From contig OZ316899.1 in assembly GCA_973895155.1 (NCBI GenBank), positions 6,761,241-6,825,240 on the forward strand: a stretch of DNA of 64,000 nucleotides, written 5' to 3'. This DNA comes from Marsupella aquatica. Taxonomy: Eukaryota > Plantae > Marchantiophyta. This document shows positions 22,423-58,049 of this stretch, piece by piece (the stretch's first letter is position 1; each line of letters opens with the position of its first letter). The position numbers and the translations under genes are program-made. Under the pieces are notes generated by a model. The model was given only the letters and a program-made list of their open reading frames with translations. It did no database searches and was not told where the DNA came from.

Positions 22423-22500
22423 GCCCCTTCCTACGCGTCAAGGATAAAATCACAGGTTAATAGCTCACTACACTGCTCCACTCGTAAGGCAAAATGAGTG

Positions 22501-22519
22501 CCCCCTCCATCTAGCGCCA
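22501..22519 (-). other. Primer binding site of gypsy A
   Basis: TGGCGCTAGATGGAGGGGG on the - strand, between the LTR and gag. The primer tRNA was not identified. Confidence 0.75.
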
Positions 22520-23599
22520 AAAAACCGGTCGCCGTATGTCGCGCCCATAACCCGGGCCTTAAATCCGAGTTAGTTCCCTGGGGCGACCACAACCACCAGT
22601 AGGGGTGAGGGTTTGGGCAAGGAGGTGTGTAGTGGTCCTAATTAGCCCTAAGTTGGACTTAGTCGATATACTTACCGGTATAATACTTACGCAACTCGCA
22701 CTGATCATAGGTATATTTGTTTTCCACCGCTGGAATATTCCCATAATTAGTGACTTAGACTAACTCCCGGCTTGGGGCTTTCAAGCCATCGACGCGACTT
22801 AGAACCTTGCAACATGCAAATTGTGGCAATCCCTACCATTAGTCCGCACCCGGTACGTCCCTTCAAATGGCGCCCTTGCCCAGACAAAGCATACACACAA
22901 CACTAGCTACTCGCGATAGAATCAGAGGGGAAAGACTACATTTACTCAGCGAAGAACCGGTTTACATAGTTGACTCGACTTCTAAGGGGGTCAGCAGGCC
23001 TAACGGCAGTCGATGCCCAGTCTCTACAAGGCCCCGCCCCGCGCTTGCCCAACAAGCTTGACTCCGGCTCTCACTGCTTAGTGCACTTTGACCTTGCTCA
23101 GGCCTGGACTCCCTGTGCCTTGCCTTTTCTTGCGCTAAGATAACTAAGTCTTCCCCCCCTCCACAACGGAAGGGGAAGCCTAAATACTACGCTTGCGGAA
23201 AGGAACCAAAAGATACTACCTTCCGGGGCAATGCCTACCGACTAACTACCTTCTGACTAGTCGGCCGCATCTCCTCTGACTGGTTGACCGTCAGAGGCGG
23301 GGGCATTGACCGGGGTGTCAGTAGCTAAGTCTACTGACCCAAATTCTAGTCCGTTGATGGACTCCATCCTACGCCGAATGATCCTAATTGGTCCTGTCCT
23401 AATCCTTCCTATTGCGATGCTAATCGGTGCCTAATGACAGCTATTGTTGTTAAGCCTAATAAAAAAAGATGCCGCTGACCCAACCGTAATGAGCAGCGCC
23501 TGCCCGCTCCCTCTGCTAACCACCCCTTACGTGCGAGCTGCCGTTGGTCTAGGGTTTGTCCTCTTGTTGGGACGAGACCTTGAGCCGCCTTGATCAGAG

Positions 23600-25190
23600 G
23601 TGGGTCCAGGCCCATTCTGCTGACTTACAAGCAGGGTAATGCGCTCTTGCGAGCAGGGTAATGCACTCTTGCGAGTAGGGTAATGCACTCCTGCAAGGCC
23701 TTGTTATCCCGTACCGCCTCCTCTACCTCGTTTGCGGCTTCGTCGGCCTTGGTCTAGAGCCGTGCTACCTCTAGGCTGAGCTGGCCGATGGAGTCACAAT
23801 GGGTCTGGTCCTGCGCCAACAATTTATCTTGCTTGGCGGAGAGACTAGCCACCTACTGAGATGCCTGCAGGAATTGTTTGTTGAGCTCGGTCAGGCTAGT
23901 AGCCCGAGCCGAGGACTCTGAGCGCAGCTGAAGCACACTATCGTCGAGCTTCTTGAGATCCGCTTGCACCGCGCCCAACTCCTGGGTGAGTCCTTCCCGT
24001 TGTTCAATGGTGCGGACTAACTCTTCACGGCGGGTGGTGGCCTCCTCCTTGAGGTGTTCTATTAGCATTTGGAGGCGCCCGATCTCATTCCCCTTTTCCA
24101 TGAGTTCTTCCTCCAAGCGACTTACAATCCGTGGTTGGTGCTCTAACATGAAGAAGGTTGGTTGGAAGTACGCCGAGACTTGTTGCCCGATGTACGTTGC
24201 TAGCTCCCCTGATAGAGTCTGGCTGAACTTCTAGACCAGGTCGTAGGCCATGGTCCCCGGGACTACTTGGTAGTCCTCCATCCTCTCGGGCACCGGTGGT
24301 TCCTCGGGCGGGGCGGCAACCTCCTCCATAATCTGCACTGGGGAGGGGAAAGTTTCTTTAGGTGGTGGAGGGATTGGGGGTGGTTGTACTGGGGGTAGCG
24401 GACGCTCGACCGAAGGGGGTGGCGGAATTTCAATGGGAGGAGGTGGCGGAGTATTAGTCGGGGCCAATGGCTCGGGGTTTGCCCAAGGCGTGGGAGTCCG
24501 CTTGCTTGGGGTTGCCTCCTCTGGAGTGGGAGCGACGTTGGTCGGGGCTGAGGTGGCCATATTCTTTCCCCTGGCCTCCCGCCGCGCCTTGTAGCAGGCA
24601 AGGATGATGGCAATGTGACTTCCTAGGTAGGTCCTTCCCCCGATAGACATACTTGCTTGAGCTCGCTTAAGTTCCCCCAAGAACCTACGGCAAAAGAATT
24701 GGGCCCAGTTCCACCATTTGTACTGTTCCACCTGTACAATTTTATAGAGGGAGATCTCAGATCGTGGCTCGATCATGTGTAAGGTAGTCTGTAGAAGTTA
24801 AGCCGCTCCATGCAGACTAAGTTGGTGCATGATTCCTGCTTGTACCCCTTGTCTGTCTTACCCTCGGGTTTGAAGTGTCGGGGTGTATACTCCTTATCCC
24901 AAATTTGGAGTTCAACTGACACGGGCCCGGTTGGTAGACAAAAGATATGTGCCAACCGATACTCCGTAAGCGACCGATACTCCATAAGCAATAGGGTCTG
25001 CCCTGAAACTTTGGTGGCCGCCCCATCAATGTCAAAGTTGGAGATGAACTCATAAACCTCCTTTGGCCCGGCTGCGCTAGGCCTCCATAGCAAGTGAACG
25101 AACTGCTCCAACTGATGCTCTTTGAGATAGTCCGCGTGGTTGGGTTTCTTGATCGCTATCCAGACTACCTCGGGGCCGTGGATTACCTAT
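23600..25190 (-). pseudogene. LTR-encoded protein (plant-transposon-protein-like domain, Pro-rich linker, coiled coil)
   Basis: ORFs 24773-25111, 24231-24776, 23853-24149. HADYLKEHQLEQFVHLLW..EFISNF..LNFYR..EPRSEIS..WAQFF..YLGSHI is homologous to 46335-48138. Confidence 0.75.
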
Positions 25191-25310
25191 AATAAGTTGG
25201 GTTGTTGATTATTCGAGGGCCGTCAAGACTAGTGTAGGGGCGGCGTTGGTCCGCGCGGTTGGTTTGGGGGCCGGCGTTGTCCTTGCCCGCTTTCAAGAAC
25301 GTTGTTCGAG

Positions 25311-26086
25311 CTACGGACTAACTCGTCCGGTAGAACCTGAAGAGCACTCGGTGTTGTTCATCGGACGGACTTGGGTTTGGTTTGGCAATATGCCGGTAGT
25401 CGTAGGCCGAGTAGTCGGGGGTGCTTTTGGAGTAGCCATATCCCAGTCAAAGGTGTTGGAGCTTTCCTCGAGAAACGTGAGATTACGTGCCGCTTCCTGT
25501 TGTCTGCTGATGTCTTCTTTGTGCTTCTCGACTACAATCTGTTGGTCAATGTAACCTGGGATCTTGTCCAACTCCGCTTGAGTCAACCTTTGGCTGCCCT
25601 TCAGCCTAAAGAACTTTGTGAGGACTTCAAGAATTGCCTCTACTACCGATCTAAGTCCCTCCTTGTTGATATATAGCTTGGTGATGTAGTCCCGCGACTT
25701 GTTGTAGCTGGAATCCCTGGTGATGGCTATCTCCTCACAGTTAACCTGTGCTACCTTGGCCACCAACTTTGTGTATCATCATTCGTAGGCGGCTTTCTCA
25801 GGGCAAGAGTACCAATAAGTCTCGGAGAACTTTGCACCTACCTCGCCAAACAAGGTCCAAAATCCCAAAGCTGTAAGGGTCATACTAACCTTTGCAGTCT
25901 GGTTTGTCGAGTCCGCATCTCCGTTCCACAGTTTTGCTTGCTGGTGGAGGCCTTCCTCGCCCTGACTAAATCTTGCCACAATCCGCTCTTAACCTTCAAT
26001 AATTTCCTGTAAAAGCTAGCTCGATCCGAGAAAAATGCAAGAGTGAGTGGTAGCGTCCACGAATTCCAAAAGTTATGAATGAGCAA
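25311..26086 (-). pseudogene. Upstream coding segment of unknown function inside LTR A
   Basis: Co-oriented ORFs 25880-26086, 25779-25979 and 25311-25766, positionally equivalent to 45492-46165. Confidence 0.4.
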
Positions 26087-26434
26087 ATGGCTTGTGGCGC
26101 CTCGACTCAGCTCTTATGGAGGTGCCAGGGTGAGCTCGAGCGTGAGAAGGCGAGGCCGTTTTAGACGTTGATAATGGCTCAAAGTTGGGTGTCTCGGTCC
26201 AAACATGATCTCCTAATGGATTTTTACTCCACCGCCGCCACCGTACCTTGGCCAATCATAATAATTTCCTTCCCTTAACTCGTAATCATTCAGTCAATTA
26301 ACCTACTCCTAATCTATTCATAATGGCAAAGACGGCTATTTGTACTACTCTACGCTACGGCTACGGTCCTAATGATCGTATAAGTCCTAATCTAGGACTT
26401 GCATTCTATTAAGTGACACGTTACCCGTGTCACA

Positions 26435-27029
26435 GACATGGTGATTAAAAGTCAAGCCAAGAAAAGGATCTGAGACTTGGAAGACCAAGCAGACAAGGAC
26501 AGAAGGAAGATTGATTCCTTGGATGTGGCCCAGAAGAAGTTGGAAGACCATCTCTAGATTTGGAAGCTTCTGAATGGAGTAGTCACCAGTGTTTAGGAAG
26601 CTATTAATGTACCAACCTTGGACTTGTTGGAAGCCAACCTGATTGATAAGTACTTAGCGACTGCCAACCCAAGCACCCTTGCTAAAGTTATTGAGTGTAA
26701 TAACAGGTTTGCCAAGAAGATCACGGGGCCTTTTGATCAAATGGAGAAGGTGATTCTGGATGCGAAGTCCATGTTGACCCCTTCCAAAATCTGGAATGTC
26801 CCCAATGATTCCTGATGCAACCAAAGTAGGAGGCACTCCACCCGGATTTGAGAAGGTTGAGTTTCATTTTCCGGTTGTTTCTCCTTTGAAAATCAATACT
26901 CCGCCAAGTTCTCCTTTGGATTTGCATGAACCAGGAACTACCCCTAATTTAGGGACACCATCAGGACAGATTAATGCCAAACGTGAGTCAAGTAGAGTAG
27001 AGTTAGAGGATAGTACCCCAGAAGCTTAG
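26435..27029 (+). pseudogene. C-terminal part of the LTR-encoded protein of gypsy B
   Basis: LDLLEANLIDKYLA...LAKV aligns with LDLLKTQIYDEYLA...FSKI of ORF 31804-32913. Confidence 0.65.
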
Positions 27030-27824
27030 TAGTTTTTAGATTAGTTAGTTAGTTAGCATTTCCGGATCTGGTTAAGATCTAAATCCGGAATTTGTAGTAG
27101 ACCCGGAAATCCATTTCCAGATTTTGCCTTATACTCATTTTCGGATCTTCCTTTGTTGTCACTTCCGGATTTTAATGACAGTTACTTTTTCCTCCATGAA
27201 AACCGGAAATGACACTTTGATACCTTTTGAGATCTTTTCCTCTTTCCCTTTAGCGTCTTAAGTTCTATGACAATTACATTTCTCTTTAGGTCTCACTTTC
27301 TATTGGAAACATTGAAGCTCCTCCTTAGGTGCTCCTATTGAGCCTCAACCTGTTGTGAGTATAACTGAAGACTCCTTCTCTTATTGAGAAGTTAATACTT
27401 AGAGAATTTGAGATTATACTTGGAAATTGGATTTGATTTGAATTGCTTATGTGAATTCCTGGTAGCATTTGACTCCTGCTACTTTCAGTAGGTGAAATAA
27501 AATGTTTCCTTGCCATGAGCAATCATCTAAATTTGATCGAGAAGTTATTAATTTGAATTGACAATCTTGAAATTTCTGTGTGAGAACTTACCAATTTAGG
27601 CATTCTAGTACCGTCGTCTTTTGTTGACCAGAAAGAATCCTTGGTTTGATAACTAGATCTCCATTTCAATTTCTAGTTAATGTAGGATGTTTATTCTTAA
27701 TTTGGCATGTTGTGAGCTCTCTTGCATTTTAAATCTTAAAAAACCAGGATCCTGTTGATCTGCTAGGGATCGTCATTTTCCATCATCTCTTCCCATAAGC
27801 CATTTGAAAGGAAATTCTTACTAG

Positions 27825-27996
27825 TGTTTGAGTAACTACACAATGATAAGTGTGTTCTTCCTTCAAGTTCCAAATGGAGTATATACATGGTGGTTGGTTC
27901 AAGCCAAAGTCTAGGTAGTTACAGCAGTTACCTAAGGTTAAGGCAACTTAATCCTAGGTGTCCAGATAACCCAAGTCTAGACTTAACCTATGTATT
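27825..27996 (-). repeat. 3' LTR of Bianca copia (last 6 bp on + strand missing)
   Basis: One mismatch to 37442-37613 by eye. Confidence 0.9.
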
Positions 27997-28239
27997 CATT
28001 CTCTCGATGCTCCTTGTCTTGAGAAAAGTAGCCAGGGTTCTTTGGTCGAGAGTCGGCGTTCAGGAGTATGCAACTTCAGCGTCAAAATGTATTCGTCGTA
28101 AGAGCTGGGGTGATCGGTATTTTGCGTTGTTCGTCTTTCTCGGCCGTTGCTTGGTGTGTATGCTCCCCCTGAATTAGAAGATTTCTTGAACTGGTTTCTT
28201 CATCATTCCTGTAAGAGTGAAGTAAAGCTGCACATCCCT

Positions 28240-30812
28240 AAAGTGTTGGTAAGTTCACTGTGCGTGATAGGAGGTAAAGCCTTTGTGAATATGTCGGCAA
28301 AGTTTTGTGACTAGGGATCCATTGTACTTTGATCTGTTTATGCTGTTGTTCATATGTAAAGAAAATTTTTGGAGCAATATGTTTCGTTTTATCACCTTTG
28401 ATGTATCCTGCGGTTATCTGTTTGACGCATGGTCTATTGTCTTCGTAAATCACAGTGGGTGAAGTAAGTTTCGACATACCTATGTTTTCTAGAATGTAGT
28501 CTATTACTGTGCGTAGCCAAAGGCATTCGCGGCTAGCTTCGTACAATGCGATTATTTCTGAATGGTAATGGTAATGGTAATGTATTATAAGCTCCGGGAC
28601 CATGAAAGTCAAAGGAGCTGCCACAAAAAGTAAAGTACAATGCAATCAAAGAAAAGAGCAACCAAAAGAGATTGCTCAGAAGAGGACAACTATGTCCTCA
28701 AAGAAACTATGGACCTAGAGAGCCCTGAAAGATTTTCCAAACCTATTCTCCTTTCCCTATCCACCGCAAAGATATATCTTCCAAGTTGCTGAGGGGGCAG
28801 ACCAAACAATGCATACAAATCTTTCACCAAGATTTGAGATGCCATCCTAACCCCCTCATAAAACTTGCAAGCAATGAATACATGATATTCATTCTCTATA
28901 CTAGAGCTATCACATAGTTGACAAACCCTCTTTTTCCTGTCAATATCCTTCCATCTCCCTTGTTCTACTTGAGGTGGTGTGAGCTTAGTCTATACTGAGC
29001 AATAAGTTGTCTAAGTTGTACTGAGATAGTGCTAGATAAGTATTCTTGTTCTCGATATTTCTTCACGGGGTTCACATCTCTCATGTAGTATTGCTGCCGT
29101 GGGCTAGGTTCATGCCAAAGTTTGTGCAAAGCCTTTTGCTCAAGTTTTGCTCTTAGCTTGGTTGGGTGTGTTGGCCATTCATGTTCAGGAAAATCCCAAG
29201 CATGGGCCCACCTGCACACATCTGCATACCACCCTTTAGCTGAAGATGAGCGCAAGGCATGAAAAGGAAATCTGTTTTCCTCCAACTCTCTTACACGCAT
29301 GATGTATGATGGAATGATTAGATGATGTTGTAGTGAGAGATTGCTTGGTGCTCTTCCAAGAAATTGCTGTAGGTCCAGTAAGAAATACGTAGCCTGTCTA
29401 GGATTTTGCATCTGTAGGGTCGGATAAGTATCCTGCGTCTGCATATCCATAGAGTGTAATGTTGATGTCTGATGGGTAGAGTAAACCATGCAAGATCAAT
29501 TGTTCCACTCAAGTAGCGGAAGATTTGTTTAAGCCCATTCCAATGTCGTATGGTGGGCTGTGAGCTATGGCATGCTAGCAGGTTCACTGCAAATGCAATG
29601 TCCGGCCGTGTTTGGCTTGCCAAGAACATGAGAGCGCCTATCGCAAATAGGTAGGGCTTCTCAGAGCCCAGTAGGGGTTTGTTCTCTTCTCTTTTTCGGA
29701 AAATATCTTTGTTCCGATCCAGTGAACGCAGGTCCATTGGAGATTTTACACTCTTTGTTGTGATCATTTTGAATGTTGTGAGCATTTTTTGAGTGTATGT
29801 AGATTGGTGGAGAAGGATACCTTGAGGTAAGTGCTTGAGCTGTAAGCCAAGACAGAATGTTGTCTTTCCCAGATCTCGCATTTCAAAAATACGTTGGAGC
29901 AGGTTGATTGTTTCTAGCATTATCTTGCTAGTGCCAAACAAGTTTAGATCATCGACGTATATTGCTATAATGATCAGTTCTTTTCCTTCTCGTTTAATGA
30001 ATATGCATGGTGCAACATCTGCATTTGTAAATCCCATGGCTATCATCTCTGCTTGAAAGCGTTGATACCAGGTGCGTCCGCTCTGTTTCAGCCCATACAG
30101 TGAGCGCAGTACTTGAATTGCAAAGCGGATTTGAGCTGTACAAGCTTTCGATCTTATCACTGGCTTTGGAGAAGCCTTATATGCATATGTCTGTGATGTG
30201 TTGTGTAGCACATTATGATTTGTGTGGCCAAACGGGCCAGCTTCTTGGCTTTTTGGTAAGTTCTCCCCCTCACTATGGTATTTAAGCCTGTTTATCAGCT
30301 CAGGCGGAGCCTCCATCTGTATGTTCTTGTCAAGTTTTCCATACAGGTATGCGGTCATTATATCCAATTGATGCATGGAAAGTTTATAGTGTATTGCAAA
30401 TGCTATGAGGTACCTGTAGGTGATGATATCCATCACTGGAGAATAAGTCAAGTCGTAATCCCTTCGTGGGATTTGTGTAAATCCTCGGGCCACAAGTTGT
30501 GCTTTGTATCTCACTATTTCACCTTTTGCATTTCGCTTCTTCACAAAAATCCATTTGTATCCAGTCAGGTGGGTTTCATGTGAAACCGGGGAAATCTGTC
30601 CAAATACTTTACGTGATATAGTGAATCCAATTCGGAGTTTATGGCTGATTCCCATTTTGTCCAATCGTGTCGTTTTTGAGCCTCCAGGATTGTTTTGGGA
30701 TCAGGTAAATCTTCAGTGATATCTTGTGATGTTTGGAATACAAATGTATGATCCAAAGGTGTGGTCCGACGATCCCAGATTTGTCCTGTATGTTGATAAT
30801 TGATGGCAATTT
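28240..30812 (-). pseudogene. Copia RT-RNase H, frameshifted and split by a LINE
   Basis: GYKWIFVKK..RYKAQLVARGFTQ, SLYGLKQSGRTW, IYVDDL, SNHSEIIALYEASREC, YEDN, KHIAPK. Confidence 0.92.
28561..29311 (-). mobile_element. 5'-truncated LINE (RTE-X/CR1-L2-like ORF2 C-terminus) with (CATTAC)n tail
   Basis: YRLSSHHLK*EQGRW....R..RVCQLC....IENEYHVFIAC..Y zinc-finger end. The same 3' UTR and tail recur at 41480 and 43002. Confidence 0.85.
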
Positions 30813-33800
30813 TGTAGCAAGGTGATAAAGAGATAAATGACTATTTACTCCTTAATAACTCGATTTCGTTCTCGTTAGGAGTGGATAAGATCGAAAAGAC
30901 TGAATTAACACAATTTGAGAAGTTTACACCAACATTCTTAGGTTGGAGAGATTTCTAATGATCTCCTTAACATAAGTGTTTAACCACAAACTCAAGTGGG
31001 TAATCCTTAGGATTCACAGTGCAATAATAAAGACTAGAATTAACAAAGATTGAAACTAGAGAGAGTAGGTAGGAGGTTTCAAAGTGCAAGGAAATTGAAT
31101 TCCGACCATCACCACTCCTTCAATAAGGATTATGGCCTAATTTAAGATTCGGAAATCAACATTGTATATGCTTTTTGATTTCTCATAGTAACTCTTCTCC
31201 ATCTCTTGAATTTAGAAGACAACAATGTAAATCAACCCGGGACACTTTTCTGGTCTTGCTTAAGACGGTACTAGGATACTCGAATTGGTTTACTTCTCCT
31301 ACTATCCTTAAGATTGCCTATTTGAGTTTCACGTAAATTCCAATTTCTCTTTGGTGAATCTTCTATATGAATTGGTCACAGACCTTGCTGATCTTCCAAT
31401 ATCATCATAGGCACACACTAGTATTCATTGAATATTGCACAACAACTCAAAGGGTTGCTAATCTTGAAACTTCTCTTTACTTAACCATGGTAAAAAGAAG
31501 GGAAGAAAAGGCATAGATTTCTCCAAAATCAAAACGGGGAAATCAAATGCATCTCTCTCTCCCGGGGTTGACTTTGGGTTCTCCTCCTTTTGTACTAAAA
31601 GTGGAGATTATGAAAAGACATGCCTATTCAAAACCCAAGTCTAAAGAAATATGTAAATAAAAGTGAACTATCTTAGTAAAAAAATGGAGTAGAGTCTCCA
31701 ATGGATACACCAACAAAATACTGGAGTCTGCTTACTCATATACTAGTCTATATAGCTATTTCTAAGTCTAAACTAATGTGGTTCTAACTCTCTAAATATA
31801 ACTCTATTCTGGTCCTAGCTTTTGGGAAGGAACCTCCTCAGGGTTAGCCATGGCAAGGGGTTCTGGTCGAAGGAAAACTCCCTGCTGGCCAGTGGTAAAA
31901 GGGATGGACGGGTCAATATCCATGTTCTCCTGATGGGCACTTGGGTCATGAGAATAAGTGTAAGAATGAGAGTGGAAGTGTGTACTGGGAGTGGGGAAAC
32001 CAGGAGGGTTGAGGGGCGATGAGGGGCTAGTGGAATAGACTCCTTCATGAGGACTAGGAGAGAAAGATCTGGTAGTAAAGGCATGAATCTCAGTATCAGC
32101 TAATAGCTCCTCTGTAGTCAAGTCACTCATCTCCCTTAAGGCTTCACAGGTCTTTGAGAGACCCGTAAGTGCATCATCTACTCTGGCACTCACATCTACC
32201 ACTAAATGGTTAATCTTGGAGAAAAGGATGGGTGTGGTGTTCTTGGCCAAATACTCATCATAAATTTGGGTCTTAAGAAGATCCAGAGAAGCTATCTTAG
32301 TCAAAGGCTCAATCAGATCCAAAGATTGAGTGATACTGAGTTGGAGAGTATGCTCAAGCTCATTCTTCTTCTTACTCCTTTCCAACTGCTGTTTGAGTTC
32401 AGATACCTTCTTCTTGAGGAACTCATTCTCCTTCTCCAACTTCCTCTTATCTGTGGCATCACTCATGGTGGAGATCTTTTCAAGAATCTGCCCCGGTTTC
32501 ACTCTTAACTTCTGAGAAATGTCAGTGATGGCCTTCTCCATCACAATGGTCTTCCTCTTCACCTTCTGGAATGTATCTAAGATGATCTGGAAATCAGCTA
32601 GGGTGTCTAGGGAGGCATGGCCGGGTGCATCCGGAAATTCAGTCGGGTCGGCAAAGTCCGGGTCGAGGTTCCGGGCAGCAGACCGGGTCTTTCGAGGATT
32701 TGTCTCTGCTGGTTCCTCATCCTCACTGTCATCAGAGGTGGCCTGGGTGATATCTGGATCTGCCTCTCCATACTTTATGAAGTTGAACTTGGCCAATAGT
32801 AATTTCTTCTCCTCTCTGAACAAAACTCCTTCAAAGCTATATAGATGTACTAGGTAGCAGGAGAGGGGAGTAGGACTCTTATTGGACAGGTTCTGTACCA
32901 ACTTCCTTATCAAATCAAAGATAAGCTTAGCCCAGTTGACTTTTCTTTCTCCCTTGTAAGCAGCAACAATGGTAGAGCCAACTCCAACAGTAACTCTTCG
33001 TGGCTTATCAGGATATAGCAGGAAGCTGAAGACTCATTTCAAATCAGGATCCAAACACTTAGAAACATTGAACCCATCCTTACTGTTGATGGCTCCTTTG
33101 AAGTAAGGAAGGATTAGGTTGACAGCTCTCCCCACTGGACCTTCTCCTTCATCTTCCAATACAAAAGCTCCTGCAACCATCATCTGAGTCCATCGCTCAG
33201 GTCGGCCTCTAGAGGTATCCTTAAACTCAGCCGGACACTCCTTGGATCGGATCTCTCTGATCATATCTTCGCTCTGATAACTCCAGAGTAGCTCCATCAG
33301 AGACTCACAGCCCATCATGAGCAAAGACTCCCTCAATTTGACCTTCTCAGCTTCACTGTCCGGAATAGCTGGCCTCAGAATTTTCATGGCAATGGGGACC
33401 TCCTTTCTCTTTGATTGTCTCACAGGAGCTTTAACCGGAGTAGGTGCAGGTGATGTTGAGGTTTGCCCCATAGAAACGCGAGAAGTGGATATTCCAGCTG
33501 GATCCGCCCCTTGCTCCATAGGATTTCTGGAAGTAGCAAATTGATTTTTGGTAAATGTTCTGCATCCTCTACGGTGAGCTCTACAATGATGTGGCTTCAG
33601 AATGTTCAATCTCTTTAGTGTCGACCACTGGTAGAAATGTCTGGGTCGACCTGGCCGCAGCGTTTCTGATCAACTGACGAGCTTTTCTGGAGAAGTGTAT
33701 CAAGATTCCGTCAACCAAAATATAGGTGCATCTAACTTGGGGAAAAGCTAGACTCAATCGGGCCTACAACGGTGATGTCCGGGTCGACCTGGCCTCCCTT

Positions 33801-34387
33801 CTCACAACCGATGTATCCACAATCAGGATCTTAAACTTCCTGCCTTCACTTCCAGCGGTGGAGTAGGCATTCCCCTCACAACGAATCAGTCAGTACCCTC
33901 ATATCCAGGCTCTCATCATGCAATGCAAGATTGGTCCTATAATCCGGACCCAAGATCCTCTACCAAAAGGGTAGAGCCTCCTCACTCTACAGCTTAAATA
34001 GCCTAATGCGCTCGGGAGCTCAAAACCTACTAAGTTCGGCTTTGAGAGGTGTGAGAGGCCGGATCGACTCTCCTTCCTTATATCCGGATTCTGCTTTGGT
34101 CGTGCCTGTGTTTGACTTATGGTTTTAAAAACTTGGCAATGGACAGCTGTTGTTCAGTAGAGTCGCGGTATAAGCTTTTATATCTCATCACGGCTTATAG
34201 TAAAAAGTTTTGGGTCGATCCTCCTTCTCTAATATCAATCCGGGTTGACCTCTGATGGGCTTGAAAGTCTCATACCACTTCAAAGTAGTCTTCAGGTCCC
34301 TCCTCAGCCTCATTTGAGATCTTAAACGTAAAAATTCTAAAATTTATGGTTAGTTAACCCTTCTTTCATAAACATCCTTATCTCACA
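30813..34387 (-). mobile_element. Giant solo LTR (3575 bp) related to LTR B, TSD AATTT, containing a ~571-codon gene
   Basis: TGT...ACA ends. AATTT at 30808-30812 and 34388-34392. Removing the unit restores the copia EIAINY reading. Non-coding 31240-31290 (-) matches 27590-27640. Confidence 0.88.
31804..33519 (-). pseudogene. LTR-encoded protein with a single in-frame stop at 33034-33036
   Basis: ORFs 33034-33609 and 31804-32913 are in frame: KDGFNVSKCLDPDLK*VFSFLLYPDKPRRVTVGVGSTIVAAYKGERKVNWAKLIFD..PTPLSCYLVHLY, then coiled coil and Ser/Pro tail. Confidence 0.8.
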
Positions 34388-34392
34388 AATTT

Positions 34393-37133
34393 CATGTTCG
34401 AGATGCATTGTTTCAGAAAGTATCTCTGTTGTCGGTGGGATTGATGCTGGCTGTATGTTCTCCTTGGAGCGCCTCTGCCTTGGCTGCTTATCTGTTGCTC
34501 TAGTTGGTCTCCCACGTTTGACTCAAGGTTCTGTTTGATTTGCCGTTAGATCCAGGTGCTGTATTCGGGACGGAGTGTTCGCTGTTGGGATGTGGGATCT
34601 AGTCACTTTAGCAGCATCTGCGAAAGCATCACGGAGTTGATCCATCATTCTTGTAAGGTGCAGTGTGCGTTGAATTTCTGAATCCGCTTGTTGTGTGCGA
34701 GGGTCATTCCAAAATCCAGTCTGGATTTGCCATCGTAAATCTTTAGGTAATTTGTGTCCATGGGTTTTCGTCACCTCCAACTTGGGGAAAATAGTTTCAT
34801 AAAAATGGCAATCAGCGAAACGTGCTTTGAATACGTCCGCTGTTGATGGCTCCAAGTAGCGGATAATGGCTGTGGAGTCAAAACCCACATAAATGCTAGG
34901 TTGGCGCTGTGGTCCCATTTTTGTCCTCTTAGGCCCCAATATTGGGACCAATACTTGACAGCCGAACATTCTGAGATGGGAAATGTTCGGGGAAGAACCA
35001 AAAGCTAAATTGTATGGTGTACTTGAATTAAAAGCCAATGGTCTGTATTTCAGTAATGTAGCTGCATGGAGAACTGCATGGCCCCATGCAGAGGCAGGGA
35101 GATTTGTTTGCATAAGCAGGGGCCAAGCAATCATCTGTAATCTTTTGATGAGTGACTCTGCTATTCCGTTTTGGAAATGTACATGTGGAACTGAGTATTG
35201 AGCTTCAATTCCTATTGAAACACAAAAGTCATCAAATGTTTGTGACGTAAATTCGCCTGCATTATCCACTCGAAGTTTCCTGATAGGATTGTCGAGAAAC
35301 TGTGCTTTTAACGTTAATATGTGGGCAAGTATCCTTGGAAATACCAGATTTTGGGTAGATAGGAGAGAAATCTGTGACCATTTTGACGAGGCACATATTC
35401 TTTGCTAAGAAAAATCGGAAGGGTCCACTCGGGGGATCTATTGGGCCACAGACATCAGCATGAAGTCGCTCAAGGAATCTCGGTATGGCTTTGTCTGTGG
35501 TTGAGGGTGCTGGTCTAGTGACCATCTTGCCTGTTGAACAGGCTAGGCAAGGAGATGTGAGTGATCTGGGGTGTACTGTAGGTGGGATGCCCTGGCAATC
35601 TTTTATGATCTTATAAAACATGGTTGTGCCAGGGTGGCCCAACCGGTTATGCCATATTTCTGTAATTGTGCTATTCTTGAGCTCTGTATGAAAACTATAT
35701 GCTTTCGTAGTGTAAAACCCTGATGGTAGTGCAGTTAATGTCTCTTTTATCTGTATTCCGGTTGGTGTTTTTGCCACAATTTGTAGAACCTCCCATGAGT
35801 CAATTATATCGGTGAGTATGTGCAAATTATTATCCCGGATGTCTTTGAAGCTCAATAGATTTCTTGTGGCTTTAGGAGCATAAATCGCAGATTTTATGTG
35901 TATGTATGTGCCGTTGGGTAGAATGAGTTTAGCTGGGCCGTGGCCTTCTTCTAGTTGATATTGGCCCATTATTGTGGTGACTCTTCTGTGGGAGGGAGTT
36001 ATGAATTTAAAATATTTTGGGTCTTGTAGAATGGTGTGCGACGTGGCACTATCGACTATGCAACAATTTAGTGAATCCAGGTTTTCATTTGGTTGGGAGA
36101 CTAGGTGAATTTCTGGTAAGATGGTAGGGGCTTCTAAAAATGCTCCATGAGATTCATATGTTTCTCTGTTTAAGCTTTGCTTATAAAGATCAACCAGATG
36201 TGTAGGTGCTCTATAGAAGCGTTTAATATGTCCTTTTGTGCCACATCTATTGCAGATAGGGGGGTTTTCAGACTTATCTCGGAAGTCATTGGCTCTCCTT
36301 GTCGGTGGGTTATACCCATTGTCCCGTTTCCATGAATTTCTGGAGCTGTTGTATCCGCCCCTATCTCGTCCTCTGCCTCTGTAATGTTGATTTCTTCCTC
36401 CTCTGAATGATTGAAAACGGCCGCCCCTCTGGGAGCCTCGGCCTCTATATGATCCTCTTTGGTCTCTTCTGTCTTGTGATTGATTTCGATGTGTTGTTTG
36501 TGGAGCATTGTAATGAGTTTCCGCCTGTGTTTGGGGAGGAAGGGTGCCAGGTGGTCGAGCTTTTGTATTCTGTAGCAGTAGAAGCTGATGCTTCTCTGCT
36601 AAAAGCATATGGGCGATTAGCTCTGAATATCTTGTAAACCTCATATTTTGGTACTGCGTTGATAGTACTAAATTTATGGAGTGAAGTGTAGATAGAGTTT
36701 TCTCTATCTGTTCATCATCTCCTACTGGGTGTTCGCAAATAGTCAATTGAGATACTATGCAAAAAAGTTCACTGTTATATTCAGCAATTGACTTGTGGTC
36801 TTGTATGCGCAGATTAATCCAATCATGGCGTGCAGCGGGGAGAAATATAGTCCGAGTGTAATCGAAACGGTTCTTTAGTTCCTCCCATAGAATTTGAGGA
36901 TTGTATTCATTCATATATTGGAGCTTGAGAGAATCCACTAAATGGTGTCTTATTAGAATCAATGCCTGGGCCTTTTGTTGTAAAGTGTGGCCTGCATCTG
37001 TAAGAATAGTATCGGGAATTTCCTTTGAGGCCAAATGTGCCTCCACGTCCAGTGACCACGACAAGTAATTTGAGCCATCTATATCTAGTGCTTGAAAGTT
37101 TAATTTCTCGATTGCACTTGTCGAAGGTGCCAT
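34393..37133 (-). pseudogene. Copia gag-PR-INT (frameshift near 35390)
   Basis: ORF 35262-37133: gag, CNRCGTKGH knuckle, IVDSATSH protease, WHNRLGHP..CLAC, LHADVCGP. ORF 34523-35269: DNAGEFTS..QNGIAE. Confidence 0.93.
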
Positions 37134-37441
37134 TCTCTCAATGTTGGCAATTTCCTCGAATCACTTTATGTGTAATCTTCCTCAGATAATTGATGAAGCT
37201 TCAATTTTGAATCCGCTTATAGATTTCTCCCAATTTGTAAATGGAGTCAATGGATTTCATTCAAATTTCTTTTTCGGGTTATATCCTTATGATACTTGCT
37301 TAAGCGAGCCTTTCTCAAAAAAATTTAAGAAGGATAAACTTTGTTTCAATCATTCAACAGCCCCGCATTTGATTCATCGTTGTCTTGCACAAGATCTGAT
37401 GTTGGAAAAAAAATTGCCTCTAGCGTATCATGCTGATTACG

Positions 37442-37619
37442 TGTTTGAGTAACTACACAATGATAAGTGTGTTCTTCCTTCAAGTTCCAAATGGAGTATA
37501 TACATGGTGGTTGGTTCAAGCCAAAGTCTAGGTAGTTACAGCAGTTACCTAAGGTTAAGGTAACTTAATCCTAGGTGTCCAGATAACCCAAGTCTAGACT
37601 TAACCTATGTATTATAACA
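37442..37619 (-). repeat. 5' LTR of Bianca copia, 178 bp
   Basis: TGTT...AACA termini; direct repeat of 27825-27996. Confidence 0.92.
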
Positions 37620-37841
37620 ACTAGTCATTTTTCCTTACCTTTCTTTAATTGTTAGTTTTGTTCATTGATTGCCATCAATCCTATGGAGAGAGCACTCCTT
37701 CGCAAGGATATGACTAATGAACATCCTATTTTTTCCTTTTAGTACCAATTTGCTTCTCATTAACTCTTAAAGGGAATGAATTCAGGTCCTTAGATATTAA
37801 ATTGTTATTTTAACATTGTGACCACTCTACCACACGCTTTT

Positions 37842-37859
37842 TGGCGCCACTGCCGGGGA
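37842..37859 (+). other. Primer binding site of gypsy B (Athila-type, tRNA-Asp-like)
   Basis: TGGCGCCACTGCCGGGGA. Confidence 0.8.
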
Positions 37860-39376: not shown

Positions 39377-40840
39377 AGTGGTGGACCTAGCCACCCAGCG
39401 CCCTCACCAATCCCAGCACTTGCACCTAAGTGCCCTTGGTGCCCGAACGCCTCCATGGAATACCTCGAGCAACCATCCAAGTGCCTCTAGCACCACCTGC
39501 GGCCACTCCCATACGAAGCCGCACTTGCTCACCTACACGAACGCTACTCAAGGGTCCTCACTGTCTGCACAAGCAACCAAGCACCTCGGTAAGTAACCCC
39601 ACCGGATCTAGAACTCGCCAAGTCTAGTATCCTAACTCAAGCTCAACAGACGTTGGTAAATAGGTCAGCAATAGGTCCTCCCGATGCCATAAGCCGGAAC
39701 CAAAACCCACGCCCACTGTGAGTCCAGGATAGCTCCTTCCTTGGGCGCAGCCCGGGTTCCCCCTCGTACGTATCCATCACCAACTGACCGCCCTGACCCC
39801 AGGACATGCTCATGGCCCAAGTAGCGTAGCTTGTCCTAAATCTTGTCCCAAGCTTGTCTCAACACGCCGGGACCAGAATGACCCCAACTCTAACAACCGC
39901 TCCCAGTTCGCCCCACTGATGGTCCAGGGACCGAGCGCCCTTGGGACTCAGCCTCCATACCTACTTGGCCTTTCCTCCCCAACGCAAGCTCCCTTGGGAG
40001 GCTGAACGCGGCTTGGCTGCTGTTCGGTAGGATTTGGCAAATGGGCAAGCTAACAACCGCAAACCACAAGAACCTATGGCACCCCCAGATCCAGCTGAGC
40101 TTTCCAACGCACCTAAGAAGTCCTCCAATGGACTTCCCGTTGGGAAGATATTGTCATTTCCGTTTGGCGGATTCCCCTAGTGTCGCGACGCCGCGGCTCA
40201 CGACTTCGGCTCGCCCTTAGCCCCCAGGGAGACACCACTCCCCTCATATATGCTTCTGGAGACCTGCCACCACGGACCAGATTTGGTCCCTAAACATTTG
40301 GCCCCCAACCCGGATCCCATCGCGCACAATGGGCGCGCCACCAACTGGCAACGCCCATAACTTTCTTGATAGGCATCCGCAAGCGGAGTGCCTTAGCCCG
40401 TTGTGACCGGGCCGACCCAATGCTCATGCCTAGGCCCTCAGGTCTGATCGCCGCTCGGGGCCCCCAACCGGCCCAACCCGGATTGGGCCACAACTTGCAC
40501 CCCAAGCGTCCGTTACCAATGGCGTCAACTCCATTGGCCTTGGGCCTAAGAGGAGCTCACTCCCAAACCCTCAGAACTCAAAGCCCATCCGACGGTTCGG
40601 ACGGCCATCCTTGAGCCTGGCCCATTTCCCCTTGACCCGACCAGCCATAGGCTAGTCCAAGTCCTTAGTTTGTGTCCCCAACTTGGCCCCTTGCCTCGCC
40701 AGTGCCACGTCTCATTGCCCACAAGTCTCCCCATGCTAAGTCCTCCCCGGATGGCCTATCCGGGCCTAGACCATAAGGGAGCTCGGCATCGGAGTCAGCC
40801 ATGCCGGAGCTAAGTGTTAAGGTAGTCGAGTTCCGCGACT
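39377..40840 (-). mobile_element. Solo LTR of the chromovirus family, 1464 bp, TSD ATGAT
   Basis: Reverse complement of 11124-12595. ATGAT at 39372-39376 and 40841-40845. Confidence 0.95.
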
Positions 40841-41479
40841 ATGATGCAGATAGCAATGATGAGGAGGAGGTGAATTCCAAGAAAGTGTCCACTGTTAAAC
40901 CTACAAAAACTGCAAAAAGTGAAGGCAAAATGGTAGACATAATGGAAGGTCTTGCCAACCAAATGAAGGGATTGGCCGTAAACCTTGCGATGAACAACCC
41001 ACCACGGAGACCCTTACAACAATAGAGGTACAATGTGTGGTGCGTTGTTTGTAAGAAGATGGGCCATTATCCTAATGAATGCCCTAGCTCAAAGCATGAA
41101 TTACATTGCAAGTGAAGACTATGAAGGTGAGATAGAATGTGATCCAGAGTTCCAGAGGTATGAAGATTTAGTGTATCAAGTTCAACCTCAGGGCCCTGTA
41201 CAATACTTCCCTAGACCACCAATAAGACCCCAAGGGGGACCTAATAGGCCTGTCTATAAGCCACCTATGGCACCACCAGGAGGATACCCATTGCTAGGAA
41301 CTTTGCCAAGAGGTGTATGTTGGAATTGTGGGGATCAAGCCCATTTTTCACCACAATGCCCATGGCCAAAGAGACTTGAAGGGATGACTCCTTTGTGTGG
41401 GAACTGCGGTAAGGAAGGTCACTTACCTATGGAATGCCCTGCACCACCAAAGCCGAAGATGTTGGTAAGGTATGTACAA

Positions 41480-41673
41480 GAGAATAGGTTTGGAAAATCT
41501 TTCAAGGCTCTCTAGGTCCATAGTTTCTTTGAGGACATAGTTGTCCTCTTCTGAGCAATCTCTTTTGGTTGCTCTTTTCTTTGATTGCATTGTACTTTAC
41601 TTTTTGTGGCAGCTCCTTTGACTTTCATGGTCCCGGAGCTTATAATACATTACCATTACCATTACCATTACCA
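41480..41673 (+). mobile_element. LINE 3' fragment (~190 bp) with (CATTAC)n tail
   Basis: Near-identical to the reverse complement of 28561-28750. Confidence 0.9.
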
Positions 41674-43001: not shown

Positions 43002-43059
43002 AGCTCCTTTGACTTTCATGGTCCCGGAGCTTATAATACATTACCATTACCATTACCAT
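43002..43059 (+). mobile_element. LINE 3' fragment (~58 bp) with (CATTAC)n tail
   Basis: agctcctttgactttcatggtcccggagcttataatacattacc... is identical to the other two copies. Confidence 0.88.
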
Positions 43060-45023
43060 ATTTTCAAATTTGATGCTCCCGTGGAGATGGAAGAGAGTCC
43101 AGAAATAATTGTCATAACTGAAATTCCGGAACTTGGTAGAACTCCGGAAACATCGGCAAATCCGGATCAATCACACTTCAACCGAGAAACTCTGATTTTA
43201 CACTCTGATCCGGAAAAGGACTCTGAAGCAGGCTTACAGCCTGGATGACGTCATAACCCTTCCTACCTAAGTACTGGAGTCAAATCTAGGATCTTGGATG
43301 GGGAGGGCGTCACAAGTGACCAAGAAGGTGTCAGCAAGGAGTTCTTACCAGGAGAAGCAAAAGGATTGACCATTGAACCTATGGGTTTTACTGAAGGGAC
43401 AGTAGACCCAACAGCTTGCCAAAAGGTGGAGATTGAACCAGGAAACTTCTTGAATATCAGCAATCATATTTAGGGTGACCTGAGAACTAAGTATGTGGAA
43501 TTGTTGAAGCAATATAGGGATGTCTTTGCCTGGAGTCATACCGATATTAAAGGCATACCCTCTTATCTGGAACAACATTGGATAGACTTGGTTGAAGGAG
43601 CATTTCCAATCAGGCAAAGACAATATCGCCTTAATCCAAAATACTCCATAATGGTGAAAGACAAGATTGATAAGCTAACCCAAGCCGAATTCATTTTTCC
43701 AGTCCTAAGTAGTGAGTGGGTTTCTCCCATAGTCATTGTACCTAAGAAACCAGGTCCGGATGGAAAAGATTTCCGGAAGTTGAATGCAGCCACCAGGAAG
43801 GACCATTACCCCTTACCTTTCATTGACATTGTTTTAGGTACGGTTGCAGGACATGACCTTTTTAGCTTCCTCGATGGTTACCCTAGGTACAATCAAATTT
43901 CAGTTAGGGAGGAAGACCGTGACAAGACCACATGCACTATGGACTGGGGCACATATGCTTTCTCAGTAATGCCATTTGGACTCTGCAATGCCCCAAGAAC
44001 CTTTCAGGGATCATCATGATTATTTTTCAAGAATACCTTCATCAATTTTTGGAAATTTTTATTGACAATTTTTGTGTTTCAGTACGAAAGAGGACCATCT
44101 GGAAAAGCTGAGATTAACTTTCCAGAAATGCAGAGAAACTTGCCTTTGCTTACATTCAGAAAAATGTTTCATGGGGATGCAAAAGGGAGTGTTTTTGGGA
44201 CACGTAATCTCTAGAAAAGGGATTGAAGTGGATGTTGAAAAAGTGAAGATCATTCAAAATCTTCAACCCCCTACTAACTTAAGAGAGTTGAGAGCATTTT
44301 TAGGTCATGTGGGATACTACCAAAGATTTATTCCTAAATATGCTTAGATTGCAATGCCACTGACCTAGTTGCTCAAGAAGGATGTTGAATATACCTGGAC
44401 TGAAGCTCGACAAATAGCTTTTCGGAATTTGAAGGATAAGTTGGTAACTGCACCAGTGTTGATACCACCTGATTGGGACCAGCCTTTTCATGTGTACATT
44501 GACACTTCAACAATTTGTGTTGGGGCAATCCTCAGTCAGAAGGACAAAGCTGGTAAGGACCACCCTATCTTCTATGCTAGTAGACAAATGAACCCTGATG
44601 AGAAGAACTATATAGTCACGAAAATGGAAGCATTGGCGGTGGTGTTCGCTTGTAAGAAGTTCAGACACTATCTTTTGGGATATCATACGGTATTTCACAC
44701 AGACCATTCTTCGCTGAAATATTTAGCCAATCAAACTGACCTTTTGGGAAGAATTGCTAGATGGGTTCTTTTACAACAAGAATTGACTTTATTGTGGAAG
44801 TTCAACCCAGAAAACATCATGAGAATGCCAATTTCTTATTGAGATTAGGAGGTGAAGCGAATGAATGTCCATTGAATGATGGATTTCCGGATGAAGACAT
44901 TTTTTGTGTCCATGAGGAGGATTCCTGGCATGCAAATATCATCAAACTTCTGACCTTGGGTGTTTTACCAGAGAATTTGAACAAGGAGCAGCAAGCAGTC
45001 TTCATTAATAAGGTTGGGCCTTA

Positions 45024-48000
45024 TGTGATGCCACCAACACGGCGGTTAATGAGTAATCCGGTCTAATCCATGCTTAGCACGTGCACTATGGACATAGTAG
45101 TCCATAATAATTAGCATAATGACACTAAAGTAGGTAGTAATCATGACTAGGACATCATTAGTCAATAAGGAGCATTTACGCTCGGGCTGACGGCGGAGCA
45201 CCATTCGTACCCCCGGGTTTCAGGCGTGTGGGGAGGTCCCCTCGGGTCCGTATAAAGACTCAAGGGGGCGGCTTGTTGTCACGCTCTGACCCAGACCTGC
45301 GGAGTGGCCGGTACAGTGCAAGCGTGAAAGGATTGGCCTATCAAAAGGAGGAAGGGGCCGTTCGGCCGACGAGCTCTCAGGGTATAAAAGGCGGGCCATT
45401 CTCTCGCAAAGCACCAGCACTTCACCCCGTCGCGCTAGCTTTGATCCCAGCTTACTCATCCATTCCTTAGACATCCATCGCCTTTCCCTATATGTCAGTC
45501 ACTATTATGTCCAGTTCTGCCCTTCGGTTCTGGCTTCAATTTCTATCCATCAGAAATCATTTAGCAAAGTCACTGGTTGAGGTCAACCCGCATCGGTACG
45601 AAACCAAAAGGCAGTATGAACAACTCATTTGTCTAGCCGGGCGCTCTCACTATAACAGAGATTTGAACCTCCCATTCCAGAGCAAGCTCTGTCATCCTGA
45701 AAAAATCTCCAAATACTTCTTCGATGGCCCAAAGTAAGTCGGTTTCCAGGAAGCACTCCTTTGGCTTCCGGATAAGGTCTTCACACTCCCGGGCACGATC
45801 GATTTACAACGACACCCACTTTGATCATATCCCCACCAAAGTCCAGGCCTCCATAGACTACTAGTTTGGTACCGCAGCTACGGGTGGAACCCCTATCCTG
45901 ACCATCCAGCTTCCCCGCAGACTTCCTGAATCTTATGGCACCTCCTCCAGCTACAATCATTGCTGACTTGTCGGTGCCCACACCAACACCACCTCAGCCT
46001 CAGCCAAGCCAATCTCCACCACCGGTTGCACCACCCCTCCAGGTGAAATCCATAGTAAACGCGGTGTACATCAGTTCCAAAGATGAGGGAGCTCACCCTC
46101 CCCTAAACCGGCAACCTCGAGGTGCAACTCAGCATACGCCTGGAAACACGTCACCACCTGCATGAGCCCCAGTGGATAACATGGTGACTGTGGCGGCCCC
46201 AGCACCAATGCTTGCAGCGGTAGCGCTGTCGCCGCCTGATAGAGGATGGGGAAATGTCCCCCTCTTCAAGTAACCCCGGGAACTAGTCCCGGGGTAGGAA
46301 GAGAAAGGAACCTGCAGCTGTATCCGGGCTGCCTTTGGCCATAGTTGCGGTGGCCAAGCTGACCATGCATTGCAATGGGGAGAATGTCCACAAGAACATC
46401 CTCCACCCCAAGCATGCATGCTACCTGAAGACCCAAGGGTTTGAGCACCTCGCCTCTCTCCCTTGGAATGGAAGTAGGTACTACGGGCAGGACATGACGG
46501 AGTTTATCCAGAACTTTGGTGAGGCCCACCAACAAACCCGAGCGCACGGGAGAGTGATGTCCCTCAATGAGGCACGTCTTAAGATGATCTTTGGCCTACC
46601 CAAAGGAATAAATTGGGTGGAATCATTGCTCCCAAGGGCAAAGGAGCCAAGTATCAATCTTCTAGCTTCCCGGCTGAGGGAGCAGTGGAAATGGATTCTT
46701 GATGAGGACATGCCTCATCCCGGAGATAGCAAAACGGCTGGAGTTCCAGCGGTACGCCCTCCACATGATGGAACCAAGGGGCAAAATATCCGCCGCACAG
46801 GTCATCCAGGTCAAGAACTACCAGCCTAGGAAGTGGGCGTCCTTCTTTGCCAAGAAATTCCACAAGGAGATGGAGCGGAGAAGGAAGACTTTGTACCTCA
46901 GCGGGAAGGCGTACTTTGCTAGCCACATCAAAATCATCATCAAGCAATATGCCCATTTTGACCGCCAAAGCCTCCCTCGTATCAATGAGCCCGAGCTGAC
47001 CCCATTGCGGTGGATATTCTTGGCCCAGGAGAGGCAACCTGAGCCCGAGGCCCAAAGTCTGGTGGCCATGAGACCTGCTACCCCGGCCCTGCAATCAGCC
47101 GCTGCTGCCCCTCCAAATGTATCAGACGATGCAGTCATTGCGACCTTGGACGTGATCAACCGGGTCAACGCGATTGAAGCTGGGCTGGTAGAGGCCGGAC
47201 CCAAGCCCGAGACTGCAATTGTAGAGGACGTCCTGCCAACCTCCACGATTGTTCAGGAGAACCGCCCAGCCCCAGCAAACCCAGCCCCCTCTCCTGCCAT
47301 ACTTCAAGGGTTGGACGTCACCACTCCAACTCCAGCGCTAGCTGAGGTCTGTCCTTGCCCAAACCCGAAGGGGCATAGTTTGGAAAGCCCGAAACTCTTT
47401 GAACCGGGCACGTTTTTGAATGGGTTGCTGGGAGACTTCTCTCAACAAATTGCACGGGATAGCGGGGAGTACATGGCACGGAAGGTGGCCTACTTCTTCA
47501 ACCAAGAGTTGGTTGCAGCCGTGCAGTCAAGATATGCGCAAGCCGAGGCTACGCAGAGAATAGAGTGGTATCGGATTGAGTCTTCCCACCTAAAAGACAA
47601 AGTTGCAGCTTGGGAGACCAAACTCCAACTGCTACAGCCTCAGGTTGTGGCCACTGAAGATCAAGTGGCCAAATCTAGGGCCTGGGCATCCTTGGCAGAG
47701 CAGGCCGGAGTTGGGAAGGACGCCAAGATTGCACGGCTCCAAACCCAGATTGACGGTTTGAAGGGACAAGTCGTCATCTGGCAAAAGGATGTGGAGGAGG
47801 TTGACACTCGGGTCCAGCGGGACACAGCCAAGATAGACGTCCTAAAGGCGGAAGTGGCACGGCTTCAAGGAGAAGCCTCAAAGCAGGCCTCGTTGGTGGA
47901 CAAGCTGACCAACGATGTCCAACAATTGGAAGAGGCGTGTCAGGAAGCCACGGAGGAGACGGACGGGGCAAAGCAAGAGAACAAATCTTTGCTGGACCAG

Positions 48001-48998
48001 GTCCAGCTCCTCAAGCAAGACGCCGACCGGCTCAGAAGGCAACGGGATGGGCACCCCAAGTCCAACTCTGGCGGATCTAGCAAGTGTGCCAAAAATTATC
48101 GGCGGAATAGATGTAGGATAGAGTTAGGAATAGGATAGTCAGGCGATAAGGACAAGCGCTAAAACTAGTTAGCGGCGCTGTCCTATCCAACCAACCTTCG
48201 TAGTTAGGATCTTAGAATAAGACACGCCGTTTTACAGCCTGACAGTTAGTAGAGTTTAGAATCTGGGATAACTTAGATTTGAGCACTTGGGGGGTCCGGA
48301 CCCCCGCTCTTAGTATTTAGTGCACCCCTCGGTAGAGGCAAGGGGGGATTTTAGTTTCAGAACCGGGTATCCGCAGAGTGTGCGGGGAGTCCTGGCCTTT
48401 GTGAGTAAAAGAATACCACGGAGGGAGGGTACGACTAAGCTCACTGGGCGAGTGCGGAGCCGGGCTCCGTTGTAGTGTATGTTGCTCTGCCGTTGGGCCT
48501 GTTTACTCAAGAGATGTCAAGTCAACCGTGTATATGTGTATGACGGATTCTGAAGTAAAGTCTTTTTCCACCATTTCCTTTGTGTAAACCGAGATTGTAT
48601 GTGTGTGAGTTCAATTGCATGTATGAATCTCGTATACGGGTAGAGAATGCTTGGCCGAACGCAACATCCAAGCCATGCACGGGGTGTTGGTTGCGAATAG
48701 TGGTTGCAAGCCCGGGTTGGATACCTGTATCATCGGATTTGGATCGGAGGCGGACAATACGAAGGCTTAAAAGCCCTTAAGCCGGGATCAATCCAGCTAT
48801 TGACTTAAGGTACGTTTTGGTGGCGGAACACAAACTATACCCATGATATTTGTATAGGTAGGAATAGGCGCACTTAGCGCTCGATTACGGGAATAAGGTT
48901 CAGTTTGCACATCCCTCCTTGCCCAAACCCTTAAAACTAATGAAGATTATGCCCGTCTAAGCCAAAATCCACACAAGGACAAAGCTTATGATGTGACA
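45024..48998 (+). mobile_element. Giant solo LTR (3975 bp) related to LTR A, TSD CCTTA, gene-bearing
   Basis: TGT...ACA ends. CCTTA at 45019-45023 and 48999-49003. Removing the unit restores the integrase reading KVGPYTLREGVLYK. Confidence 0.9.
46335..48138 (+). pseudogene. LTR-encoded protein (plant-transposon-protein-like domain plus coiled coil), frameshift ~46650-46700
   Basis: ORFs 46335-46829 and 46699-48138, homologous to 23600-25190. Upstream coding segments at 45492-46165. Confidence 0.78.
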
Positions 48999-53818: not shown

Positions 53819-53894
53819 CTCTAGTAAACATAGCTACATTCATTCCAATTAATGAGCAAAGTCTGGATAGGTTCTGTGGATGATAATTGTTCCC

Positions 53895-57782: not shown

Positions 57783-58049
57783 CTTAGAGTTCAGAACACA
57801 GGCACTCAAATTTAATTGTCATTTCATTATGAAAGTGGAAAATACATTTCTTGTTTAGTTGTGTTCCGATGTTCACACTATCTACCAAAACATATGACAT
57901 GATACAGTGTAATAAATCATGCATAGACTTTCTACAACCACCAAAAAAAACAAGAAAGGTTCCTGAATCGTGTACCTATTCTCAGGTCACACTGTAACAA
58001 AATTCCAAACTGTCTCAGGGTGTCACCTCCTTCGCTGTCCTCACTTATA

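Follow-up and report, generated by a model that had tools for sequence, protein, structure and literature searches.

The question raised by this locus is whether a plant retrotransposon carries a protein-coding gene within its long terminal repeats (LTRs), so that the gene stays behind when the element is reduced to a solo LTR. The window examined is a 64,000-nucleotide (64-kb) stretch of the liverwort Marsupella aquatica (contig OZ316899.1, positions 6,761,241 to 6,825,240 of the forward strand), and all coordinates below are positions in this window unless another sequence is named. Plant transposons lie nested in it: element A, a gypsy element with a chromodomain; elements B and C, non-chromovirus gypsy elements on the minus and plus strands, respectively; a copia element in the LTR of C; and pieces of CACTA elements. 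An initial annotation had singled out two units, here called S1 and S2, as giant solo LTRs of two gypsy families with an accessory gene inside. Our preferred reading, held at a probability of about 0.6, is that S1 and S2 are solo LTRs of two Athila/Tat-related Ty3/gypsy families, in which the LTR has grown over a gene for a predicted VANC/PMD-like, DNA-binding regulator that would protect against silencing. That the gene lies inside the LTR, in two families, is by itself highly probable. The units and their genes are the following.

30813..34387, minus strand: S1, read as a 3575-bp solo LTR, TG...CA ends, target duplication AATTT on both sides; 868-bp leader with TATA-like sites, gene, and 991-bp tail
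31804..33519, minus strand: S1 gene, spanning 571 codons, with a single in-frame stop (33034-33036)
45024..48998, plus strand: S2, read as a 3975-bp solo LTR inside the integrase of C, TG...CA ends, target duplication CCTTA on both sides
46365..48138, plus strand: S2 gene, about 590 codons from this ATG, start possibly further upstream; a frameshift lies within the domain (46380-46953), which is followed by linker and coiled coil; more breaks upstream

The ends and duplications of both units were as the initial annotation had given them. Because the window contains 582 chance pairs of TG...CA ends with a 5-bp repeat at a spacing of 3-4.5 kb, this signature is weak alone. The S2 flanks, when compared with the intact pol of a relative (the metagenome contig L001), were collinear, adjacent pieces of one integrase. 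At the S1 site, contigs in two of four public sequencing runs joined the copia sequence across S1 (30812 to 34391), with one extra letter, that is, 3 bp beyond a simple empty site. Self-comparison found no terminal direct repeats in S1, S2, or B (the best self-match was 20 bp and internal), and a domain search found no gag or pol domains inside S1 or S2, in agreement with the earlier description. TRIM/LARD-like elements with short terminal repeats were ruled out because no such repeats were found, and a DNA transposon was ruled out because terminal inverted repeats were not found. S2 has a TATAAAA at unit position 360.

Homologues of both units lie next to the site of primer binding (PBS) and gag of elements B and C, whose pol regions encode protease (PR), reverse transcriptase (RT), RNase H (RH), as well as integrase (INT) to the extent listed here.

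22537..26434, minus strand: 5′ LTR of B, 3898 bp, TG...CA ends, holding a broken accessory gene
22502..22519, minus strand: PBS-like site of B (TGGCGCTAG...), 17 nt past the LTR end
18729..22437, minus strand: element B from gag through PR into the 5′ part of RT, broken off at the 3′ LTR fragment of chromovirus A
26435..27824, plus strand: surviving part of the C LTR, with the 3′ end of an S1-like gene (to ~27030), then non-coding
37625..37834, plus strand: last 210 bp of the C LTR, ending CA, split from the rest by the copia insertion (target duplication ACTAG)
37842..37859, plus strand: PBS-like site of C (TGGCGCCACTGCCGGGGA), the same site as in L001
38521..49613, plus strand: gag-PR-RT-RH-INT of C, with S2, a solo LTR of A, and short inserts lying within it, and cut by CACTA at 49614

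We take the B site to be tRNA-Asn-like and the C site to be tRNA-Asp/Athila-like. The spacer between LTR end and PBS is unusually long in B (17 nt, 22519-22536), compared with 7 nt in C and 11 nt in L001. The 3′ LTRs of B and C are both absent from the 64-kb window.

S2 and the B LTR were collinear from end to end (tblastx, 1e-22). Their global DNA score was 522 versus 124-177 in eight local shuffles; the 3′ non-coding part scored 149 versus 29±3 for shuffled sequence, and the 5′ 500 bp scored 31 versus −14±14 (maximum 23 in 200 shuffles). Because there was no long BLASTN match between them, they are related but distinct subfamilies. The match of S1 to C was weaker and covers only the last 1.6 kb, which is all that survives of the C LTR: the non-coding part scored 73 versus 37±5 (maximum 54 in 50 shuffles) and spans the copia insertion site, and the protein scored 68 versus 34±5 (maximum 53 in 300). 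Thus the claim that each unit has a homologue placed as a 5′ LTR before a PBS and gag held over the whole length for S2 and B, but for S1 and C only over that last 1.6 kb and with moderate scores.

The public runs were informative about the outer end of the B LTR at 26434, where 7, 8, 8, and 7 contigs in the four runs left with unlike flanks and multi-copy contigs stopped exactly. Many copies therefore share this boundary at different sites. The flanking sequence, which was checked for the polypurine tract expected of 3′-LTR copies, was a mixture (agreement 0.47-0.48). Depth over the B unit exceeded that of the neighboring gag bin 8- to 16-fold in runs X1-X3, hinting at many solo copies, although summed depth is not a copy number. 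Contig depth was flat across the leader, gene, and tail of S1, and across B, in all four runs, and was flat over the gene and tail of C as well. For S1, run X2 gave 868 and 854 for the tail, 861-1477 for the gene, and 1381 for the leader; run X3 gave 6330 and 5509, 4364-6374, and 5703, respectively. Flat depth counts against an internal gene beside a short LTR, because that layout would give a step of at least two-fold.

The remaining copies of the accessory gene are listed below.

23625..25883, minus strand: broken reading region in the B LTR with several stops and frameshifts, start codon uncertain; conserved domain at ~24588-25156, proline-rich linker, coiled coil
Within the C LTR, plus strand: C gene, of which only the 3′ third is kept
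1317..3968, plus strand: another broken member of this domain family, with stops, a long coiled coil, and a 5′ end cut by CACTA

None of the five copies in the window is intact. The expected gene of ~570-600 codons was found in each unit as to length, but not as a complete gene, since every copy is affected by stops, frameshifts, or truncation. A chance open reading frame (ORF) was ruled out for S1, since 571 codons would contain no more than one stop with a probability of about 1e-12. Because the third codon position is far more diverged between the families than the first two, the codon pattern indicates that the accessory protein was under selection; alignments picked by protein similarity favor such a signal. 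An upstream coding stretch gave a suggestive but not significant score between S2 and B (44 versus 27±4, maximum 50), and there is a possible extra N-terminal module or small upstream gene at 25311-25985 in B and 45492-45737 in S2.

A search of 1.84 billion representative proteins yielded 18 relatives. Among the ten that were looked up, three proteins of the leafy liverwort Calypogeia fissa were the only named ones. One intact relative (P0010, 623 aa) begins with a disordered stretch, followed by a domain of ~195 residues, a linker, and then a long coiled coil. A domain profile built from database proteins only matched S2, B, and the copy at 1317..3968 strongly, the L001 gene clearly (21.2 bits; shuffle maximum 5.0), and S1 weakly (9.4 bits; none of 2000 shuffles above 4.8). 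Pairwise comparison of S1 with the S2 and B pieces was not significant, and the link between them needed both the profile and L001, whose gene is 33-34% identical to the S1 domain over 224 residues (E 1e-28). Because the L001 gene matches the profile and is 33% identical to S1, we concluded that, judged by sequence, both families encode one kind of protein.

Several searches for the identity of this protein were negative. No transmembrane segment was found in four window pieces and five relatives (best 19-residue hydropathy 0.7-1.6), which ruled out an env protein. Pfam matched coiled coils alone, and the profiles of PMD (PF10536), DUF1985 (PF09331), and Transposase_28 (PF04195) were unmatched; atlas leads point to PMD and Transposase_28. 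No solved structure was matched by sequence, a second look again gave none, and a full-length model gave only generic coiled coils. Word-index protein searches found no match for S1 or S2, an alignment query returned two already known proteins, and scanning metagenomes with the alignment of the LTR proteins produced 185 pattern matches, none of them a relative. The fold check proposed earlier had a divided outcome: Foldseek found nothing in PDB or BFVD, but the predicted fold of a relative's domain is a candidate match to VANC21 (PDB 9lnk) over 189 residues at 11% identity. VANC21 is a transposon protein that binds DNA and lifts silencing (PMC5735166). From this modeled likeness, a DNA-binding, anti-silencing role of the accessory protein is slightly favored. 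Repeated family-specific words in non-coding DNA were found in one of four units. In L001 the word GAGCGCTACA/AGCGCTA is scattered through the pol linker, accessory gene, LTR, and leader (L001 positions 651-700, 5080-5130, 6740-6810, 7990-8030) and, as counted without a shuffle comparison, is a candidate family-specific target word.

How the gene may have come to lie in the LTR is suggested by L001, a complete relative of 10,852 bp recovered as a collapsed circle, whose RT is 72% identical to that of C and 67% to that of B. Its order is pol, a G-rich purine tract at 3757-3770, a gene of 742 codons that is intact, another G-rich tract with TGTGA after it (6575), 989 bp ending CA, an Asp-like PBS, and gag. 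Read in this way, its accessory gene would be internal, between pol and a 989-bp LTR, as in Athila. The domain was carried by one of the 80 loci fetched with the RT of C, namely L001, most loci being too short or distant to test. A purine-rich hairpin resembling the second tract of L001 lies 25 bp past the stop of the gene at 1317..3968 (region 1299-4100), which may be an internal-type copy. Athila itself has two purine tracts. Two sites in the window resemble such a tract.

23150..23189, minus strand: hairpin and G-run, possible relic polypurine tract ~625 bp before the B LTR end
48312..48349, plus strand: hairpin and G-run, ~650 bp from the S2 end, which may be a relic polypurine tract

The best-conserved non-coding block shared by S2 and B begins at this hairpin and G-run, 625-660 bp from the ends. 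In the simplest history, plus-strand priming would have shifted to the upstream tract, extending the LTR so that its U3 swallowed the gene, placed it behind its own promoter, and left a relic of the former tract, ~650 bp short of the LTR end, in S2 and B; we give this history an even chance. Weighing against it, S1 and C have no clear relic tract, and their DNA no longer aligns with L001. Reverse transcription regenerates LTRs and makes both alike, from which it follows that both LTRs would carry the gene. Full-length elements would then have it twice, and LTR-LTR recombination would leave one copy. The protein would dimerize through its coiled coil and bind short family-specific words in the LTR. 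Because both proteins share a domain and L001, a close relative, carries its gene at the usual internal site, the accessory gene is a relocated Athila/Tat-type gene, not an unrelated system. The proposal of an LTR-borne gene in two families is supported well, if indirectly, by the collinearity of solo and PBS-adjacent copies, the boundary at 26434, and the lack of a depth step, the last two in all four runs; the initial annotation had overlooked the domain common to both proteins and the internal gene of L001.

Alternative explanations of the layout were considered. The units might be truncated or non-autonomous derivatives of L001-type elements with an internal gene and short LTR, the junctions of B and C being tandem or nested. 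Such a layout exists in L001, no pair of 3.6-4 kb repeats surrounds a gag-pol in the window, and a gene-LTR-PBS-gag order could come from a tandem array, in the case of C alone. However, the units lack terminal repeats, the full 3.9 kb of B including its 5′ end matches S2 and begins at a boundary with diverse flanks, and contig depth in S1, B, and C stays level from gene to tail; we consider this explanation very improbable. Another arrangement would place the gene in a long R/U5, with a promoter near 360-390 driving a short LTR-only mRNA and a read-through genomic RNA, a layout resembling Ogre ORF1 in which the PBS has shifted downstream. It fits the TATA-like sites that precede the gene in S1 and S2, the absence of a clear TATA from the final, conserved 650 bp of S2 and B, and the 5′, sense position of Ogre-type PMD-coiled-coil genes (PMC4408406). 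It is nevertheless unlikely: in L001, which is the closest complete relative, the gene lies 3′ of pol, the possible relic tract lies behind the gene in S2 and B, and a 3.5-kb strong-stop DNA would presumably be needed.

Other explanations accept the gene in the LTR and differ about its role. The protein could be a copy-number repressor, a factor for RNA export or integration targeting, or a structural protein of env-like type. Sharing a fold does not reveal function, the functions of such accessory genes have been described as unknown (PMC7264820), and host PMD proteins were first linked to silencing (PMC5418596). Set against this are the missing transmembrane segment, a sole predicted fold match to a DNA-bound anti-silencing factor, and the opposition of host PMD proteins to Polycomb, which together leave a different function somewhat unlikely. 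Alternatively, the gene could be in the LTR by historical accident, with only the copy in replicating elements mattering and solo copies being inert debris. This comes close to an even chance. All five window copies are broken, selection between families can act wholly through full-length elements, and CpG depletion in S1 (0.39) and C (0.33) fits methylated, silent DNA; yet the layout persists in two lineages, and leader, gene, and tail are kept together in each solo unit. Decay of old copies is expected whether or not solo copies are inert. The statement that solo LTR formation fails to remove the gene stands at the DNA level, but all copies here are dead.

Both the element and its accessory gene are best seen as being of a known kind, in a layout that we did not find described for plants. 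In Athila-type elements an extra ORF, in sense orientation, lies after pol and before the 3′ LTR (PMC7264820; PMC6317226). L001 has one there, and B and C have the gene in the LTR, their region between pol and 3′ LTR lying outside the window. The Athila and L001 likeness extends to a non-chromovirus gag-PR-RT-RH-INT with a sense accessory gene and no additional RNase H (none was found in the pol of C or L001; that of B is truncated), and to a PBS after a T-run that we take to be Asp-like, in which B differs. The differences are the position of the gene inside a 3.6-4 kb LTR, its survival in solo LTRs, and the lack of a transmembrane segment. The PMD-coiled-coil and Transposase_28 ORFs of Tat/Ogre/Retand also combine a compact plant-specific domain with a coiled coil, but they are internal (5′ sense or 3′ antisense), in elements with an additional RNase H (PMC4408406; PMC11963269), and their Pfam profiles were unmatched here. 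Ogre LTRs of 1.9-6.5 kb include the lengths found here, but are described as non-coding repeats with internal extra ORFs (PMC6431247). VANC proteins of VANDAL Mutator-like transposons (PMC5735166; PDB 9lnk) resemble our protein in the predicted fold of a relative's domain and in a family-specific repeated word in non-coding DNA of one LTR; here, however, the carrier is a retrotransposon rather than a DNA transposon, identity is 11%, and there are no tandem arrays.

Protein-coding frames in LTRs are a feature of retroviruses, such as mouse mammary tumor virus sag and human immunodeficiency virus nef. There, as probably here, the frame is duplicated in both LTRs, but the proteins are unrelated, and the present case involves a whole gene of 570-750 codons in a plant retrotransposon. 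Plant LTRs are treated as non-coding; a gene in the LTR makes a solo LTR a potential expression unit rather than inert debris, and one that can be mis-annotated as a host gene. The accessory genes of Athila/Tat/Ogre are a long-standing puzzle, for which the VANC21 fold link gives a concrete, testable function, and the two layouts (internal in L001, LTR-borne here) are a natural record of the growth of LTRs to giant size. Extra ORFs were reported to be absent from moss Tat-like elements (PMC4408406); an LTR-borne gene suggests why bryophyte elements would be so described. A broader and doubtful extension is that the LTR would be an anti-silencing cassette (promoter, gene for a VANC-fold protein, and its binding words), that solo recombination would multiply counter-defense genes, and that PMD, Transposase_28, DUF1985, and the bryophyte domain would all represent a single ancient fold for transposon anti-silencing, already in liverwort gypsy elements and overlooked by surveys made outside LTRs.

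The other features of the window include these.

~11124-18728: element A, chromodomain gypsy
27825..37619, minus strand: Ty1/copia element carrying S1 in its pol

The LTRs of A end in AG...CT in place of TG...CA (11124-12595, 18287-18728, 39377-40840), and that at 39377-40840 is a 1.46-kb solo LTR with a 5-bp duplication, ATGAT, on either side. The 3′ LTR fragment of A directly adjoins the RT of B at 18728-18729, where a deletion took the rest of A and the 3′ half of B, and probably also the 5′ part of the C LTR. A decayed 3′ LTR piece of the S1/C kind (5000-6454; 69 versus 37±4) ends at a 285-bp inverted-repeat insert (6454-6738), and a 348-codon open frame lies on the minus strand at 7234-8280 without a Pfam match. 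No Rfam families were found within 22000-49500. CACTA elements occupy 49614-64000 and 1-1298, with a second CACTA end at ~63967, and the right-hand one has BRCT, PHD-like, and F-box-like frames. A 190-bp element with copies 99% identical (28561-28750, 41480-41669, 43002-43059) terminates in (ATTACC)n repeats, and contig depth was very high around 28510-29377.
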